NCBI GenBank assembly: GCA_965262785.1 | Contig: OZ253559.1 | Coordinates: 923,571-987,570, forward strand | Length of the DNA stretch: 64,000 nucleotides | Direction of reading: 5' to 3' | Origin: Rhodothermales bacterium | GTDB taxonomy: Bacteria > Bacteroidota > Rhodothermia > Rhodothermales > Bin80 | Made by a program: the position numbers and the translations under genes | The notes under the pieces: model-generated | What the model was told of the DNA's origin: nothing | The model's input: only the letters and a program-made list of their open reading frames with translations | Database searches by the model: none | Shown: piece by piece, positions 26,722 through 34,580 of the stretch | How positions within the stretch are numbered: position 1 is the stretch's first letter | Layout: each line of letters opens with the position of its first letter

Positions 26722-27369
26722 ATGACTAGGGCCTTCAATTTGGTAACAAAGTGGGTAAGCGCTTCATTGATAGCGCTGGCCTGCGTCCTTGCCCCTTTCC
26801 GGTCTGCAGTAGCCCCACCGGCATCCGTTGACGATGTCCGGATCCTCCATCTGCCCCCATCCGAAGAGGCCGTTCGCGAAGCACTGTTCAACCCGTGGCA
26901 CGTGCAGCCGTTGCCAGCTGAATTAGTTGACTTGGAGACTCTATGGCTTGCGCGCCTAATGTATTCTGAGTCAAAGAGGGCCGGCGAGCAGGAATTGGTA
27001 GGCTGGGTGGCCCGCAACCGCGCGGAGACTGGTTTTCGTGGCCGGCATACCATCGAAGATGTCGCCCAGGATCCTTATCAGTTCAGCCCGTTTGTGGTGG
27101 GAAAAAGCACCTGGCACTATTACACCAGCCTGACGGTTGAGTCTAGTGCTCCAGGATGGCAGCGGGCACTGGCGCTGGCCTACTATGTGCGGCATGCCGA
27201 CGCATCACTACGCCCGTTTTCCCTGGACACGCGTCATTTCTTCAGTGAGCAGTCACTGGTCGTCGCAGACAGCCTGCCCGAATGGACGATTGGCCGGGAG
27301 GCGGTCGTACCGGCACGCCCAATGCAGTTGGAGCCCCAACGGTTTCGCTTCTTTGCGGGCGTATCATAA
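26722..27369 (+). CDS. SleB-like cell wall hydrolase domain protein
   Basis: 215 aa with a signal peptide. LARLMYSESKRAGEQELVGWVARNR...DPYQFSPF matches the Hydrolase_2 (SleB) pattern. Confidence 0.7.
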   Translation: MTRAFNLVTKWVSASLIALACVLAPFRSAVAPPASVDDVRILHLPPSEEAVREALFNPWHVQPLPAELVDLETLWLARLMYSESKRAGEQELVGWVARNRAETGFRGRHTIEDVAQDPYQFSPFVVGKSTWHYYTSLTVESSAPGWQRALALAYYVRHADASLRPFSLDTRHFFSEQSLVVADSLPEWTIGREAVVPARPMQLEPQRFRFFAGVS

Positions 27370-27987
27370 CCCCACCGAAAGGCGGAGCATGGCGGTGTTT
27401 AGCCGCTGCTGTCCTTCTGGAGTCAGCGTGACGAAATCAATCACGAGTTCATCTTGAATGAAATTGGTGAGCCCGAACGTGTACGCAATCTCCGGGTAAA
27501 GGCGGAGACCACCGATGGTGATCTGCAGGCCCAGGCCGGCCTCGGCTGCAACGGAGACGGGGGCAAGGTCATTGCTTAACACCTTGTCCGTGAATGACGG
27601 AAACCGAAAGACAGGTCCCGCGAACGCGTACGGCCCGATCACCGGCGAACTGATGCCGTAGCGGAAGAGCAGCGGTATTTCCACCATGCTCACGTCGAAC
27701 TGGTCGCGCGTGGCCGGAAAGGTGTCGTTGAGCCCCTCAAACAGATGGCCAGCGTCCAGATAGCGCAGGCCGGGTCGAACGCCCACGGGGCCTAGCGAAA
27801 ACTCGAACCAGGCGCCCACATGCCAGCCTTCCTTGCTCTTGAATCGGGTTTCAAGGCTGTTATAGGAGACGTCGGAAAGCTGCTGATAGTTCAGGCCGAC
27901 GGTAACGCCGAAGCGCTGGGCGGTGGCTTCGGGGCCGCGCACTGCGCTTACCAGCAGGATGCCACATACGAGGAAGCGAAGCTTCAT
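27364..27987 (-). CDS. Outer-membrane beta-barrel (porin-family, OMP_b-brl_2-like) protein
   Basis: I prefer the Met at 27987 (MKLRFLVCGILLVSAVRG). It has alternating beta-strand sequence with aromatic girdle residues. Confidence 0.7.
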   Translation of the reverse strand: MKLRFLVCGILLVSAVRGPEATAQRFGVTVGLNYQQLSDVSYNSLETRFKSKEGWHVGAWFEFSLGPVGVRPGLRYLDAGHLFEGLNDTFPATRDQFDVSMVEIPLLFRYGISSPVIGPYAFAGPVFRFPSFTDKVLSNDLAPVSVAAEAGLGLQITIGGLRLYPEIAYTFGLTNFIQDELVIDFVTLTPEGQQRLNTAMLRLSVGL

Positions 27988-29220: not shown

Positions 29221-29772
29221 CTATGGCGTGCTTGGCGGCGGATCGCTGTGCGCATTGCAGCGGCTGCGGTATGTCACAAAGGAACAGCCATCACCAGGTT
29301 CTTCGGCGACCCATTCGTACCGAGTTCCAATGAGGTGCGCGTAGGGCGGAAAGTACGTGTCCCCTTCGAAGGTTCCCTCTACCAGCGTGAGCTCAAGCCG
29401 GTCGGCCAGCAGCAGCGCTTCGGTGTACGGGCGCGCACCGCCGCCAATGAAGACAATGGACTCGTTTCTTGCGGCCCGGATAGCCTGGGGCAGTGAAGAA
29501 AAGGTCTCTACGTCGGGAAAGTCCGGGACCGGGCCCCGGGACGTGAGCACAACCATGCGGCGCTCAGGCAACGGCTTGCCAAACTGGCGGATGATGCTTT
29601 CGAACGTTGTGCGACCCACGATTAGCGCGTGCCCGCGCGTGAGCCACTTGAAGCGCTTCAAGTCGTCCCTGAGCGGGGGCCAAGGCAAATTGTGGCCGCG
29701 TCCTATCAGGCGATCTCGCGAGGCGAGGGCAGCGATGATAACGGTTTCCGGGCGCGTGGAGGCGGAAGGCAT
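29221..29772 (-). CDS. folA: Dihydrofolate reductase
   Basis: 183 aa. IIAALASRDRLIGRGHNLPW..LRDDLKRFKWLTRGHALIVGRTTFESI, and GGGARPY. Confidence 0.9.
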   Translation of the reverse strand: MPSASTRPETVIIAALASRDRLIGRGHNLPWPPLRDDLKRFKWLTRGHALIVGRTTFESIIRQFGKPLPERRMVVLTSRGPVPDFPDVETFSSLPQAIRAARNESIVFIGGGARPYTEALLLADRLELTLVEGTFEGDTYFPPYAHLIGTRYEWVAEEPGDGCSFVTYRSRCNAHSDPPPSTP

Positions 29773-29777
29773 CCAAC

Positions 29778-30818
29778 CTACATGTCTTCCCAGTACTGCT
29801 TCGGCATATCCTCTGCCAGCGCGAGAGCTCCTTCCGCACCGACAAAGAGCGGATCTTCCACGGTCGTGATTCGAAAGCTGCCATAGTCTGCCAAGGCCGT
29901 TGCGATGGCATCAGCTAGGCCCTTGGTCTGGCTGCCGCCGCCAGCCAGGTAGATGTTCTTATGCACGCGTTCTTGCAGCATGGGCTCGTAGCGCCCGACC
30001 AGGTCGATTAGCGTTTCGGCTATGGGTTCCACCAGGCTTTCGCACGCCTGGGTGACCTCGGAAGTGATGTCGTGCTCGACGAACTTGCCAGATACCGGCA
30101 TCATTACCTTGATGCGACCCTTAGCTTTACCAACCCTGCCGAACTCTTCCTTAAATTGGCGAATCATTGTTGCACTCATCCGCGTGTCCGGGTACTTCTC
30201 GCGCAAGAGGTCACATAGCTGCTTGTCGACAAAGTCGCCTGCGCTAAGTAGCGACCGCTGGTCATCTTCGGAGGGCATGGTCCCGTGCATGATGCAGAAG
30301 TCGACCGTGCCCGCACCAATGTCAACTACACAGGCGTTACTCAGGGCGCCCAAGCGGTACGCCACTGCAAACGGTTCGGAGACGACCATGAGCGTGTCTG
30401 CGTGTTCGCGCGCAGCTTCACGGATGGCCAGCTTGTTTACGTTCAGCGCTTCGGCCGGGACCCCGATGGCAGCGTATATTTTCTGACCCTTGAGCGGTTT
30501 GGCCAGCTGGATAAGGTGGTGAATCAGCTGCTTGACAGCTTCCTCGTCGCGCTGCACACCATCGCGTATCACGCCAAACTCCAGCGGGCGTACCAGGTTC
30601 ACCGAGAGCCGGTGTTTTATCGCCTCTTCGCCGAAGATGATGTCTTTGCCCAGCATTTTGCGCGCGATGAAGTCTTTGGGCCAGCCCACATAGCTGTACT
30701 CCCAGTGCCGCTGTCCGTTATTGGCTGCGACAGCACTTCGCGAAGTGCCGAGGTCGATGCCGATGCGCAGGACTTCCGGAGCCTGCTTTTCGTTGTTACC
30801 CGAGCTGTTGGTAGCCAT
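29778..30818 (-). CDS. MamK-family actin-like ATPase
   Basis: Actin/Hsp70 fold motifs: IGIDLGTS, VSEPFAVAY, VVDIGAGTVDF, YLAGGGSQTKGLA. From my memory of Magnetospirillum MamK it also shares VGWPKDFIARKMLGKDIIFGEEA (MamK: VGYPKDVIGLKLLGRPYVVGDEA) and the C-terminal DP.F.GAEGALALAEDMPKQYW (MamK: DPTFDGCRGALRLAEELPPQYW). The ATG at 30818 gives 346 aa, which is MamK-like in length. The track start at 30866 is a TTG. Confidence 0.8.
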   Translation of the reverse strand: MATNSSGNNEKQAPEVLRIGIDLGTSRSAVAANNGQRHWEYSYVGWPKDFIARKMLGKDIIFGEEAIKHRLSVNLVRPLEFGVIRDGVQRDEEAVKQLIHHLIQLAKPLKGQKIYAAIGVPAEALNVNKLAIREAAREHADTLMVVSEPFAVAYRLGALSNACVVDIGAGTVDFCIMHGTMPSEDDQRSLLSAGDFVDKQLCDLLREKYPDTRMSATMIRQFKEEFGRVGKAKGRIKVMMPVSGKFVEHDITSEVTQACESLVEPIAETLIDLVGRYEPMLQERVHKNIYLAGGGSQTKGLADAIATALADYGSFRITTVEDPLFVGAEGALALAEDMPKQYWEDM

Positions 30819-30984
30819 TTCCAAGGCCTTATAGTGATGGGTTTGGCGCGCCTGTTCAGCGATCAACCACGTGTCTGCTGCTGTAAGTTACAAAGTCTTG
30901 GGCGTTTTCGGAAGGGGTTTATATACTTACCTGTAACTTTTCTCCGATTGAGTCGTATGAGGATTAGACCAGATCGGGGGAATC

Positions 30985-31920
30985 ATGACAGGGCCAGGCA
31001 GATCACACCGCAAGGGAATCACACTTTTAGCGTTGGCACGGCGGTATCCGAGCGAGGGGGCCGCCCGGGAATGGTTTGAGGCCATCTATTGGCCGGAAGG
31101 CCGCTTTTGCCCGCAATGCAGGGGCACCGATACCTATGCTTGCCCGAAACAGACCATGCCGTACCGTTGCCGCACGTGCCGCAAGCGGTTCAGTGTTCGG
31201 ACGGGAACGGTGCTGCAAGCCTCACGGTTGCCATTGCTCAAGTGGACCTACGCCATTTATATTGAAATGACCTCGCTCAAGGGCGTATCCAGCATGAAGC
31301 TTCACCGCGACCTGGGCATAACGCAAAAGTCGGCGTGGTTCATGCTGCAACGGATTCGGGAGGCGTTCGTGCCGTTAGCCGCCGCCGCGTTTGAAGGCCC
31401 GGTTGAAGCCGACGAGACGTATGTTGGGGGCAAGGAGGCCAACAAGCACGCGCACAAGAAGCTGAAAGCGGGACGCGGAACGGTTGGCAAGACGGCTGTA
31501 GCGGGGCTGAAAGACCGCGGTACCGGCCAGATTCGGGCCAAGGTCGTTGAGGACACAAGCGGCCCGACGTTGAAGCAGTTCGTGTATAACCACACCGAAA
31601 TCGGCGCAACGGTCTACACGGATGACGCCACCGCTTACAAGGGCATGATCGGTATGGAGCATGAGACGGTCAAACACAGCGTGGGCGCATGGGTCAACGG
31701 CATGGCCCACACGAACGGGCTGGAGTCGTTCTGGGCCACGCTGAAGCGGGCGTACCATGGCGTGTACCACAGAATGAGCGCCAAGCACTTGCAGCGGTAC
31801 GTGCACCAGTTTGCGCAAAAGCACAACGTCCGGGACATGGACACGCTCGAACAAATGCAGCACGTGGTGGCCGCACTGGCAGGGCGGCGGCTTATGTACA
31901 AAGATCTGATTGAGAAATGA
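30985..31920 (+). CDS. IS1595-family (ISXO2-like) transposase
   Basis: 311 aa. N-terminal zinc-ribbon (CPQCRG..YRCRTCRKRF) and the ISXO2-like DDE domain (VEADETYVGGKE...VYTDDATAYKG). Confidence 0.9.
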   Translation: MTGPGRSHRKGITLLALARRYPSEGAAREWFEAIYWPEGRFCPQCRGTDTYACPKQTMPYRCRTCRKRFSVRTGTVLQASRLPLLKWTYAIYIEMTSLKGVSSMKLHRDLGITQKSAWFMLQRIREAFVPLAAAAFEGPVEADETYVGGKEANKHAHKKLKAGRGTVGKTAVAGLKDRGTGQIRAKVVEDTSGPTLKQFVYNHTEIGATVYTDDATAYKGMIGMEHETVKHSVGAWVNGMAHTNGLESFWATLKRAYHGVYHRMSAKHLQRYVHQFAQKHNVRDMDTLEQMQHVVAALAGRRLMYKDLIEK

Positions 31921-32108
31921 GAAGGGTCAAGGATACGAAGGACGCGTTACACGCTGTGTTTGAGCGGATCGACAACACGCCCAGTCCGAATCCGCGCTAT
32001 CGCGGACTAACGATACAGAAGGCGGTAAGGCAACTGGTGAAGGCCAAGCCGAAACCAAAGCAAGCGGCAGATTTGAGGGCAAGAAACGACGAGCTTCGGC
32101 ACGTCTAA
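31917..32108 (+). CDS. Small ORF inside the IS1595 element (63 aa), possible passenger/accessory
   Basis: The start overlaps the transposase stop (ATGA) and the ORF lies inside the right IR. It is basic and Lys-rich. No family recognised, so it could be spurious. Confidence 0.3.
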   Translation: MRRVKDTKDALHAVFERIDNTPSPNPRYRGLTIQKAVRQLVKAKPKPKQAADLRARNDELRHV

Positions 32109-32573
32109 GCCCCAAGCAGTGTACAGTTAAGTATATATTCCCCTTTCGGAATCCCAGCTGGAGAAAACCCAGTGTGTCATTTTACCAGCGGACGTGGGCG
32201 CTCGAAGTTGTTTCCCGGCGGATTTCAACGGGCGGATCAGCCGCCCTGTGTGGGTGTGCGCATAGACGTATGCAAACAGGCGGTAGCATGTAGTCAGGTT
32301 TTCTGCTGCGCGAATGCGCAGAGGAGAAGCATTTCCCTGGCGGAGTCTGCTTCCGAGTTGGCACTCCCGCGGACTGACTGGCTGCACACGGTGACAAAGC
32401 TGGCAGTCACGCCGTAAGCACAGCAATTCAATGCACGACCGAATGAAGCCTTCAACCGGCATAGCACCGGATGGGGCCACAAATTCTCGAAGTGCCTCCA
32501 GTCCGGCTTGTGTCGAAGTACGGGCCGCGACTTCCTGGTGACTGTCACAATTCCAGTCTGCTACTGGCGATTG

Positions 32574-33680
32574 TTACTTGGTGTCATTCTGGCCTTGCGC
32601 AACCTGGGACTCAGTCGCTACAGCGACTGCATCTCGCGGAGCGTTTTCATGGTCCTCCGCGACACCAGTATCTGGAGACGATACGAATCTAATTATACCT
32701 TCAAACAGCGCACCCGCGATCGCTTCCCGGAACTCATCGGACTCGAGTAGCGCTTCGTCATGCCGATAGTTGATGACAGAGATCTCGGTCAGGATCGACG
32801 GGATCGCGAGCGCTGCCGGGCCTTCCTCGAAGCGCCACCGGTCTGAAAGCACGGCAAACGGTCCGCCCTTGGTGCCCCAGTCTTCCACCGTCGGACTGAA
32901 CTGCCGTACGGTCTCATATAACTCCGTCTGAACGGATTTCGCCAGGCGCTGCGACTCTTCCTGCTTTACGGTGTTTGCCAACTCGCGTACACTACTTCGC
33001 CAGTTCGCGATGGTATAGCCGGAGTTGACATTTTCACGCCGGGCAAGACGCTCTGTGGTTTCCGAACCTCGCGGACTGAAATAGAACGTCTCAACGACCG
33101 ACCTTGGCGAGGACACCAGGGCATTAACGTGGATTGAGATCAGTATGTCTGCGTTCTCTTCCACGGCGAATTTCACGCGTTCTTTGATGGTCATGCTGAC
33201 GTCGGTGCGTCTGGTCAGACGTACCTGAAAGCCGTGCGCTGTCAGACGCCGCTCCAGGCGACGGGAGACATCAAGTGCAATGACCTTCTCCGTCAGTCCC
33301 GATGGCCCGACAGCGCCGGGGTCTCGCCCTCCATGGCCAGGGTCCAGAATGATCGTTCTGATGCCAAGGCCGAAAACGCTCGCCAGCGATACGTCAGCAT
33401 CCGCTGACAGCTGCAGTCCCGGATCGTCCTCGGCTCCAAAGCGCTGCTCAATTTGCTCTTCCGTCGTTACGGGTGCCACCGGCTCCAGCTGGCTGGTGGA
33501 GGGCCCAATGCCGCCGAATATGGTGACCACCAGTGCAGCCAGGAAGAAAATGCGGTTTCCCCATCCTGGCCCAAGGTCTTCCTTCGACCGGGTTCGCGAT
33601 GATGACTTGGTGAGTCCGAGGTTGTCCTCGTACACACCGCGCAAAAGTGCCGCGTTGGCTTTGGGGCGTCTTGTTGGCAT
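32574..33680 (-). CDS. N-acetylmuramoyl-L-alanine amidase (Amidase_3, AmiC-like), membrane anchored
   Basis: 368 aa. N-terminal TM segment (IFFLAALVVTIFGGI). Amidase_3 motifs IILDPGHGGRDPGAVG, SIHVNA and a C-terminal E..F.NY region. Confidence 0.85.
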   Translation of the reverse strand: MPTRRPKANAALLRGVYEDNLGLTKSSSRTRSKEDLGPGWGNRIFFLAALVVTIFGGIGPSTSQLEPVAPVTTEEQIEQRFGAEDDPGLQLSADADVSLASVFGLGIRTIILDPGHGGRDPGAVGPSGLTEKVIALDVSRRLERRLTAHGFQVRLTRRTDVSMTIKERVKFAVEENADILISIHVNALVSSPRSVVETFYFSPRGSETTERLARRENVNSGYTIANWRSSVRELANTVKQEESQRLAKSVQTELYETVRQFSPTVEDWGTKGGPFAVLSDRWRFEEGPAALAIPSILTEISVINYRHDEALLESDEFREAIAGALFEGIIRFVSSPDTGVAEDHENAPRDAVAVATESQVAQGQNDTK

Positions 33681-33686
33681 CGCTCG

Positions 33687-34580
33687 CTAAACGGCTACTG
33701 GCGCCTTGATAGCTGGATGATGGCAATATTCATGCAACACAAAGTCTTCGAATTGGTATTCAAACATGGACGGAGCACGCCGGACGATTTCCAATCGCGG
33801 TAAAGCATACGGCGTACGGGTCAGCTGCTCCCTGATCTGAACCAGATGGTTCAGGTAGGCGTGTGCATCCCCAATTGTATAAACCAATTCCCCCACTTCA
33901 AGATCAACCTGCTGCGCCACCATGTGTGTGAGCAGCGCATACTGCGCGATGTTGAATGGTGCGCCCAGAAAGAGGTCATTGGATCGCACGTAAAGCTGAC
34001 ACGACAAGCGTCCGCCTGCCACGTAGAACTGGTAGAACATATGGCAGGGAGGAAGTGCCATCTCGGGCGTCTCCGGCGGGTTCCACGCACACACTATATG
34101 TCTTCGGCTGTAGGGGTTTGCGCACAGGCTCTCTATGACACGGGTTATCTGGTCAGCACCTTGAAAATCACGCCACTGCTTGCCATAAACGGGTCCAAGC
34201 ACTCCGTGTTGGGCCGCAAACTCCTCCTCGTTGCGGACACGCGTCTCAAAATGTTTCATCCAAGCCATCCACTCCTTCGAGCCAGAGGACGGGACTGGAT
34301 GCCCATTGCTCTCCAGGTACCGCCTAAGCGGCCAGGCGGTCCAGATGGAGATCTTCCGGTCTACCAGCCATTTGATGTTGGTATCGCCAGACAGGAACCA
34401 AAGCATCTCGCAGGCGAGCCCGCGAAACCACACGCGCTTGGTAGTGCAAAGCGGGAAGCCTTCGGCAAGATCAAACCGCATCTGGTAGCCGAACACGCTA
34501 AGCGTGCCCGTCCCGGTCCGGTCTTCTCTACGGACGCCCTTTTTCAGCACGGTGTGGAGCAACTCCAAGTACGGTCTCAT
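33687..34580 (-). CDS. thyA: Thymidylate synthase (ThyA)
   Basis: 297 aa. [27 protein letters not shown] and the catalytic LPPCH..YQFYV block. It has an insertion relative to the 264-aa E. coli form. Confidence 0.92.

Follow-up and report, generated by a model that had tools for sequence, protein, structure and literature searches.

A MamK-family actin-like protein whose conserved genetic partner is a membrane-anchored peptidoglycan amidase

Introduction

What does an actin of the MamK family do in a bacterium that carries no magnetosome genes? The question is raised by a 346-amino-acid actin-fold ATPase encoded at positions 29778..30818 on the minus strand of a 64,000-nucleotide (nt) stretch from a Rhodothermales genome (GenBank assembly GCA_965262785.1, contig OZ253559.1, positions 923,571 to 987,570 of the forward strand), hereafter the window. 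MamK assembles ATP-dependent two-stranded filaments that align magnetosomes, and an initial annotation of the window, made from the sequence alone, regarded the protein as a MamK-like filament recruited to another job. Here we report that the conserved genetic partner of this branch of the MamK family is a membrane-anchored peptidoglycan amidase, not a magnetosome. Our analysis suggests an as yet undescribed cytoskeleton that would direct the cleavage of the wall from the cytoplasmic side.

The spatial control of dangerous wall hydrolases is a central question in bacterial cell biology and in antibiotic research. Known examples of such control include FtsEX with EnvC, NlpD, and bactofilin with LmdC.

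Results

An amidase gene precedes the actin gene in about eight phyla

We scanned one genome per species and recovered at least 578 loci related to the window actin, of which the best 80 were analysed in the following. These loci are labelled as Rhodospirillaceae; Desulfobulbaceae, Desulfobacteraceae and Syntrophobacteraceae; Nitrospirota; Gammaproteobacteria and Chromatiales; Acidobacteriota, Thermoanaerobaculia and Aminicenantes; Rokubacteria; Gemmatimonadota; Schekmanbacteria; and Rhodothermales, amounting to about eight phyla as counted from the record titles. An orthologue of the window amidase lies upstream of the actin gene on the same strand in 80/80 loci, matching a profile of the Rhodothermales amidases with E values of 1e-48 to 1e-144 and more weakly only at genes truncated by contig ends. 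The amidase gene is located directly upstream in 79/80 loci, where its stop codon falls between -70 and +95 nt from the first aligned actin residue (median about 0) and the two open reading frames (ORFs) often overlap. The lone non-adjacent locus belongs to the sister species of the window genome, in which an insertion sequence (IS) is also present. No further gene is conserved with the pair across the loci examined. The initial annotation had singled out the amidase as an informative neighbour, and this co-occurrence bears it out.

The pairing was also examined among closer relatives. Orthologues of the actin, with 62-98% identity, were found in 31 of the 40 relatives searched, and an amidase orthologue (E <= 1e-54) stands beside the actin gene in 30 of these 31; in the exception (G035) the contig ends 18 nt past the actin match. 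The relatives that lack the actin gene contain only distant amidase paralogues (E >= 1e-19), with the exception of one genome, G006, which is described below. Among 400 genomes sampled across the phylum, the actin gene was present in 12 of the 28 genomes of the window's order and in 0 of the 372 others.

The surroundings of the pair are far less constant. At 18 loci from other genera, the order thyA, amidase, MamK-like gene, folA is found wherever the fetched stretch or contig reaches, usually with a convergent bshA. In genomes of the same order that lack the actin gene, nothing between thyA and folA matches the amidase: thyA and folA overlap in one genome (L028) and are 0.7-1.1 kb apart in two others (L026 and L027), while the fetched flanks of L024 and L025, which also lack the module, contain no folA. 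The amidase and actin genes therefore constitute a two-gene insert for which thyA and folA are a mere frame. This frame occurs only in some Rhodothermales, and other neighbours flank the pair in other phyla. Thus, the thyA/folA operon in which the actin gene was initially placed is incidental, and the conserved unit is the amidase gene followed by the MamK-like gene.

A third gene accompanies the pair in part of its range. At Nitrospirota, Deltaproteobacteria-labelled and Thermoanaerobaculia loci (L048, L059, L060, L077 and L110), the gene after the actin gene encodes a hydrophobic stretch followed by a periplasmic SPOR domain, and three of the five scanned SPOR proteins have an N-terminal cytoplasmic receiver-like domain. 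SPOR domains bind peptide-stripped (denuded) glycan, the product of amidases, so that a SPOR protein as third gene links the module to the work of amidases, with the septum as the probable site. The SPOR gene is absent from the Rhodothermales module. At one Acidobacteriota and one Schekmanbacteria locus (L101 and L106), the gene following the actin gene encodes an Rce1-like CAAX protease.

The amidase carries a conserved cytoplasmic tail peptide

The window amidase (32574..33680, minus strand) is a bitopic N-acetylmuramoyl-L-alanine amidase of 368 amino acids. Its polypeptide is arranged as a cytoplasmic N-terminus of about 43 residues, a hydrophobic helix (residues 44-59), a variable linker and a periplasmic Amidase_3 domain (residues 110-330; Pfam Amidase_3, 132 bits). 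The predicted transmembrane helix, IFFLAALVVTIFGGIG (33504..33551, minus strand), was identified in the translation as a hydrophobic stretch and aligns with hydrophobic stretches of the orthologues. The best match in the PDB is Escherichia coli AmiA (8c2o), which covers the whole domain; the DPGHGG, SIH and LTE motifs are kept, and the zinc-ligand and catalytic motifs are thus retained. About 90 extra residues occupy the site at which AmiA, AmiB and AmiC hold their regulatory insert, and short, insert-free amidases align with the window protein in two pieces about 90 residues apart. Autoinhibition by this segment is putative.

The cytoplasmic tail is otherwise variable and contains one conserved peptide, KANAALLRGVYEDNLGL in the window (residues 7-23; 33612..33662, minus strand), which is found in 17/17 Rhodothermales orthologues. 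The consensus of the peptide is +xxILRGVYE[DE]NL+I. A relaxed pattern detected it in 70 of the 71 full-length amidases, which come from about eight phyla, and the 71st holds a recognisable variant; the Asn is invariant and is preceded by an acidic residue. As a control, the same pattern gave 2 matches in the 933,472 residues of all other ORFs of these loci.

In this regard, genome G006, from the same family as the window genome, provides a natural co-loss of the actin gene and the tail motif. At the syntenic site of this genome (contig C88, positions 1493-2972), the gene of a diverged 305-amino-acid amidase lies directly before folA, bshA and an outer-membrane gene, and the actin gene is gone. 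The encoded amidase matches in the catalytic domain alone, with 36% identity; its membrane helix is preceded by just a short basic stub, and the tail peptide is missing.

The actin belongs to a separate branch of the MamK family

The ORF of the window actin (29778..30866, minus strand) opens with TTG, and the ATG at 30818 yields the intact 346-residue protein. Its assignment to an amidase-linked subfamily of MamK-like actins draws on the ORF, NCBIfam, BLASTP, the fold match and the tree. Against the NCBIfam MamK model NF040964, the protein scores 399.8 bits in a protein scan and 400.3 bits in a genome search, at a cut-off of 400. It falls below the cut-offs of the BeeR model (200.6 bits; cut-off 530) and of the MreB models NF010539 (78.8 bits; cut-off 293) and TIGR00904 (64.7 bits; cut-off 365.75), and Pfam recognises only the generic MreB/actin fold. 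A marginal match to Alp7A_like_C (22.5 bits versus 22) does not place the protein among the ParM/Alp7A actins, given the chromosomal, housekeeping character of the locus. The genome encodes a separate MreB (C1:3498002), and the MamK-like gene is present in single copy.

Sequence searches of the PDB returned MamK (5ljw, 5jyg and 5ljv) with E values of about 1e-75, followed by BeeR (8r2n; 1.7e-37) and MreB (8.6e-13). By BLASTP, the window actin aligns with MamK of Magnetospirillum AMB-1 over 337 residues without a gap and with 40% identity. The three MamK sequence blocks that had been quoted in support of the initial assignment are all present in the translation, the phosphate-binding and adenosine-binding motifs are kept, and E148 and D166, which correspond to the catalytic E143 and D161 of MamK, are invariant in the window actin and 32 amidase-linked relatives. 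An AlphaFold model (predicted local distance difference test 88.9, predicted template modelling score 0.85, with 43 relatives in the alignment) superposes best on the MamK filament subunit 5ljv_A, with template modelling (TM) scores of 0.89/0.95 and a root-mean-square deviation (rmsd) of 1.7 Å; the TM scores with BeeR and MreB are 0.82 and 0.80, respectively. Disorder in the model is limited to residues 1-12. One residue was considered and then set aside as an argument against polymerisation. The position of MamK A278 is Glu in the window actin, and the A278D mutant of MamK (PDB 5ljw) does not polymerise; true magnetosome MamKs carry E, D, S or G at this position, and the argument was dropped.

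Phylogenetic analysis by maximum likelihood used 95 sequences and 355 alignment columns (model LG+C20+F+G4). All 33 amidase-linked sequences group in a single clade (support 100/97). The magnetosome MamKs of Nitrospirota form a separate clade (100/100), those of proteobacteria lie in a third, well-supported region, and the BeeR-like sequences form a distinct, long-branched clade. The window actin nests in a Rhodothermales group (100/98), which is itself nested among other phyla inside the amidase-linked clade. As the gene is also missing elsewhere in the phylum, this nesting suggests that Rhodothermales acquired the module by transfer. The tree does not resolve the backbone between the MamK-family clades, its MreB root is attached by a very long branch, and it therefore does not decide whether the amidase or the magnetosome association came first. 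Consequently, the initial view of a MamK-like filament recruited to another job holds as far as it describes a MamK-family actin in a non-magnetotactic genome, and recruitment from MamK itself is not supported by a clade of its own on such a backbone. In one further MamK-family clade (P0275-P0297), the actin domain makes up the C-terminal third of proteins of 500-1232 amino acids, whose long N-terminal parts gave no match in Pfam.

Magnetosome genes are absent from the genome and from the related loci

The genome is a single contig of 4.25 Mb and is 97% complete. It was searched by tblastn with the mamAB operon of Magnetospira QH-2 (MamH, I, E, J, K, L, M, N, O, P, A, Q, R, B, S and T). MamI, L, M, N, P, S, T, H and J gave no match anywhere in the genome by this search, and the matches obtained were scattered and generic (HtrA proteases, TPR proteins, LemA and a weak CDF match). 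The magnetochrome domain PF18509 was likewise not found in the genome. The absence of magnetosome genes that had been noted for the window thus extends to the whole genome. Furthermore, no mam gene occurs within 6 kb at any of the 80 related loci. Neither of the outcomes that the initial annotation had named as counting against its assignment was observed: the actin does not fall into an MreB, ParM or Hsp70 clade, and no magnetosome genes occur elsewhere in the genome.

The separation of the two associations is most evident in Nitrospirota, where 28 of 301 sampled genomes contain a MamK-family gene, in two classes. The 18 genes of the first class share 52-56% identity with the window actin, score 408-441 bits on NF040964 and are amidase-linked in 18/18 cases. 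By comparison, the 11 genes of the second class, the magnetosome mamK genes, share 40-46% identity, score 447-473 bits and are amidase-linked in 0/11 cases. Of the five second-class genomes checked, four have a magnetochrome pair at a distance of 2-3 kb from mamK, on the same strand, and the fifth has its magnetochrome matches on another contig, whereas no magnetochrome match exceeded the cut-off in any of the five first-class genomes checked (0/5). Nitrospirota thus contain two kinds of ‘MamK’, which their genetic context separates cleanly.

The amidase-linked clade as a whole spans 384-441 bits on NF040964, so that the 400-bit cut-off falls inside it. As a consequence, its members are variously annotated in the source records as ‘MamK family actin-like protein’, ‘rod shape-determining protein’ or ‘hypothetical protein’.

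An insertion sequence separates the pair in the window

In the window, the module is flanked upstream by thyA (thymidylate synthase; 33687..34580, minus strand; Pfam and NCBIfam) and downstream by folA (dihydrofolate reductase; 29221..29772, minus strand; Pfam DHFR_1), which begins 5 nt after the actin gene and lies outside the module. These positions, and the shared strand of the four genes, are as initially annotated. The gene bshA is convergent, downstream on the folA side. No Rfam match at E <= 0.1, such as a riboswitch or other regulatory RNA near thyA or folA, was found in the window between 24000 and 38000. PADLOC returned nothing significant for the actin or the amidase protein, and a defence system was rejected as a candidate.

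An IS1595-family element (30906..32151, plus strand; Pfam DDE_Tnp_IS1595 and NCBIfam IS1595) with a transposase gene at 30985..31920 (plus strand) is inserted between the amidase and actin genes. It is bounded by imperfect inverted repeats of 30 nt (30906-30935 and 32122-32151), and no clear target-site duplication was found. Its end lies 87 nt before the actin ATG, and the element faces away from the actin gene. Only the window's genus has an IS at this place, and both the amidase and the actin gene are intact. About 420 nt (32152-32573) separate the right IS end from the amidase stop codon; they contain no credible ORF and gave no Rfam match. A spacing of about 280-360 nt between amidase and actin genes is seen in near relatives too, and it is almost nil in most other lineages.

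Neither species of the genus has a disrupted actin ORF. At 125 positions that are at least 95% conserved, the window actin departs from the consensus at three (T to V, V to I and V to A), all of them conservative; among the 42 relatives compared, the corresponding count is 0-6 with a single exception. A scan for sigma-70-like promoters, which does not cover those of the Bacteroidota type, gave no candidate on the minus strand ahead of the actin gene. The gene immediately downstream provides a further indication, as folA is the sole DHFR_1 match in the genome and the genome uses ThyA, ThyX not being found. With folA only 5 nt after the actin stop codon, folA must therefore be transcribed, most simply together with the actin gene, and a working promoter would lie downstream of the IS or inside it. 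The IS thus sits ahead of a presumably essential gene.

Two blocks of the window, 29486-32185 (the actin gene and IS1595) and 27086-27985 (an outer-membrane beta-barrel gene), show 97-99.7% nucleotide identity to the sister species L111, where the background is 88-93%. The two lineages may have recombined recently, or the allele that bears the IS may have undergone a sweep. In L111 the IS1595 transposase carries an 8-base-pair deletion (corresponding to window positions 31464-31471) that splits its reading frame, and the element is probably inactive there.

Discussion

On balance we favour, without strong confidence, a mechanism in which the actin filament binds the amidase tail and thereby positions or regulates the enzyme. 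The ATP-binding actin-like protein would polymerise on the cytoplasmic face of the membrane, and the filament would bind the tail peptide +xxILRGVYE[DE]NL+I. Binding of the tail would set where, or whether, the amidase strips peptides off glycan strands, presumably at the septum or at another defined site of wall remodelling. Polymerisation and direct contact between tail and filament are inferred by analogy, from the behaviour of MamK and BeeR and from the polymer-tail precedents BacA/LmdC, FtsA/FtsN and MreB/RodZ. As to its history, the two-gene module may have entered an ancestor of Rhodothermales and come to lie between thyA and folA in this sublineage; IS1595 would later have parted the two genes in the window's genus, leaving both undamaged.

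Several observations weigh against this mechanism, or at least against its operation in the window genome. The IS separates the amidase and actin genes by 1.75 kb, and the two are thus not co-transcribed from one promoter, so that the stoichiometry of amidase and actin may be disturbed in this genome. The ratio of nonsynonymous to synonymous substitution rates (dN/dS) of the actin gene relative to the sister species is 0.45, a value that is based on 10 substitutions only and is uninformative, because the two species share about 99% identity over the block with the actin gene and the IS. In addition, the septal reading rests on other phyla, since the Rhodothermales module has no SPOR gene.

Other explanations were considered. 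The link to the amidase could be real and the actin, rather than forming a positioning filament, could be a nucleotide-dependent switch comparable to FtsA or Hsp70 that binds the tail or some other partner and controls amidase activity or stability across the membrane, or the tail could bind another cytoplasmic factor. The extra residues at the autoinhibitory-insert site of AmiA/B/C suggest regulated activity, and the receiver-like domain encoded next door in other phyla points the same way. Nevertheless, we regard a switch as unlikely, as the nearest characterised relatives, MamK (5ljv) and BeeR (8r2n), form ATP-dependent filaments (PMC11929497), and the model superposes best, at 1.7 Å rmsd, on the filament form of MamK. 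Given that actins of this superfamily move cargoes as varied as magnetosomes and plasmids, the pairing might instead reflect gene-order hitch-hiking, with the filament serving an unrelated cargo (an organelle, DNA or storage granules) and the amidase a bystander. The breadth of the pairing makes this very improbable: it holds at 80/80 loci of the wide scan, 18/18 of the first-class Nitrospirota genes and 30/31 relatives, over about eight phyla and often with overlapping ORFs. The amidase orthologue is missing wherever the actin gene is missing, the tail motif was lost along with the actin gene in G006, and the pair travels without any other conserved gene.

The state of the window copy and its origin invite two further explanations. 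Cut off by IS1595 from the thyA-amidase promoter, the actin gene could be silenced or decaying, as might be read from the oppositely oriented IS end 87 nt before its ATG, from the lack of a minus-strand sigma-70-like promoter there and from the dN/dS of 0.45 over 10 changes. We consider this improbable, since both species of the genus keep an intact ORF, its three conservative departures in 125 positions stay inside the 0-6 range of all but one of 42 relatives, the promoter scan is blind to Bacteroidota-type promoters, and folA, the only dihydrofolate reductase gene of a ThyA-dependent genome, must be transcribed 5 nt after the actin stop codon. The suggestion in the initial annotation that the gene might be a remnant of some other positioning system is likewise unlikely, in view of these few conservative departures and of a pair conserved in about eight phyla. 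Finally, a score at the NCBIfam MamK cut-off and 40-44% identity to true MamK would agree with an ordinary mamK, or with the relic of a lost magnetosome island. To this we assign next to no probability: the whole genome is without MamI, L, M, N, P, S, T, H, J or magnetochrome, the protein belongs to a clade apart from the magnetosome-linked MamKs, and its housekeeping context is conserved across families of the order.

If a filament that holds the amidase by its tail proves to be the correct account, the actin and amidase module, with its short and easily mutated tail peptide, would offer a new and directly testable mode of hydrolase control. The window genome, in which the partners are parted by an IS, is a natural experiment in this respect. 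More speculatively, and with considerable doubt on our part, the amidase-linked actins may represent a third actin system of wall biology beside MreB and FtsA, one that gates or places an amidase via the enzyme's own tail in at least eight phyla, and MamK may be a specialised offshoot of an older wall cytoskeleton, or the reverse. A practical consequence concerns the use of mamK as a marker. Because the NF040964 cut-off lies inside the amidase-linked clade, MamK hits and surveys based on the mamK marker are no evidence for magnetotaxis, and such surveys may pick up non-magnetotactic bacteria. In the Nitrospirota sample, the amidase-linked type occurs in more genomes (18) than the magnetosome type (10).

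Comparison with known systems

The amidase/MamK-like module is undescribed in the searchable literature, in which we found no paper on the pairing of MamK with an amidase; each of its parts is of a known kind. The occurrence of MamK homologues outside magnetotactic bacteria was noted earlier (Lefèvre et al. 2013, as cited in the preprint bioRxiv 10.1101/682252). The window actin resembles MamK in its length, actin fold, gapless alignment at 40% identity, catalytic Glu and Asp and nucleotide-binding motifs. It differs from MamK in that the amidase-linked actins always stand beside an amidase gene, never beside mam genes, and form a clade of their own; moreover, the presumed partner here is the amidase tail peptide rather than MamJ or MamY.

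BeeR (PDB 8r2n) is a three-stranded tubular actin of Verrucomicrobiota, a MamK relative from non-magnetic bacteria whose function is unknown, with a disordered N-terminal extension of 30-50 residues as its hallmark (PMC11929497). The window actin is likewise a MamK-related actin of a non-magnetotactic bacterium, and BeeR is its second-best match by both sequence and fold. Unlike BeeR, however, it has no 30-50-residue extension, scores below the BeeR cut-off and belongs to another clade.

The closest analogue in how the system would work is provided by the bactofilin BacA, whose binding site is the cytoplasmic N-terminal tail of LmdC, a bitopic M23 peptidase, in Hyphomonas neptunium and Rhodospirillum rubrum (PMC10945521). 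In both cases, the gene for a cytoplasmic polymer, a predicted one in the present module, lies beside that for a bitopic peptidoglycan hydrolase with a short conserved N-terminal tail, and does so in many species. The two systems differ in polymer and enzyme, as bactofilin is nucleotide-independent and LmdC is an M23 endopeptidase, whereas the present module would combine an actin-like ATPase with an Amidase_3 enzyme. They also differ in the tail: the LmdC motif is a beta-hairpin, while the amidase tail is a short peptide with helix-like hydrophobic spacing.

A related arrangement is known from FtsA/FtsN and MreB/RodZ, where the bitopic partner is bound at its cytoplasmic N-terminus by an actin-family protein that lies beneath the membrane. 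The amidases AmiA/B/C and SPOR domains (FtsN) of the E. coli divisome act jointly on septal peptidoglycan, and the module described here resembles this arrangement in the phyla where a SPOR protein is its third gene. It is distinct from both the E. coli divisome and MreB-RodZ in that the Rhodothermales module includes no SPOR gene, the actin is of the MamK type and the amidase itself holds the cytoplasmic tail.

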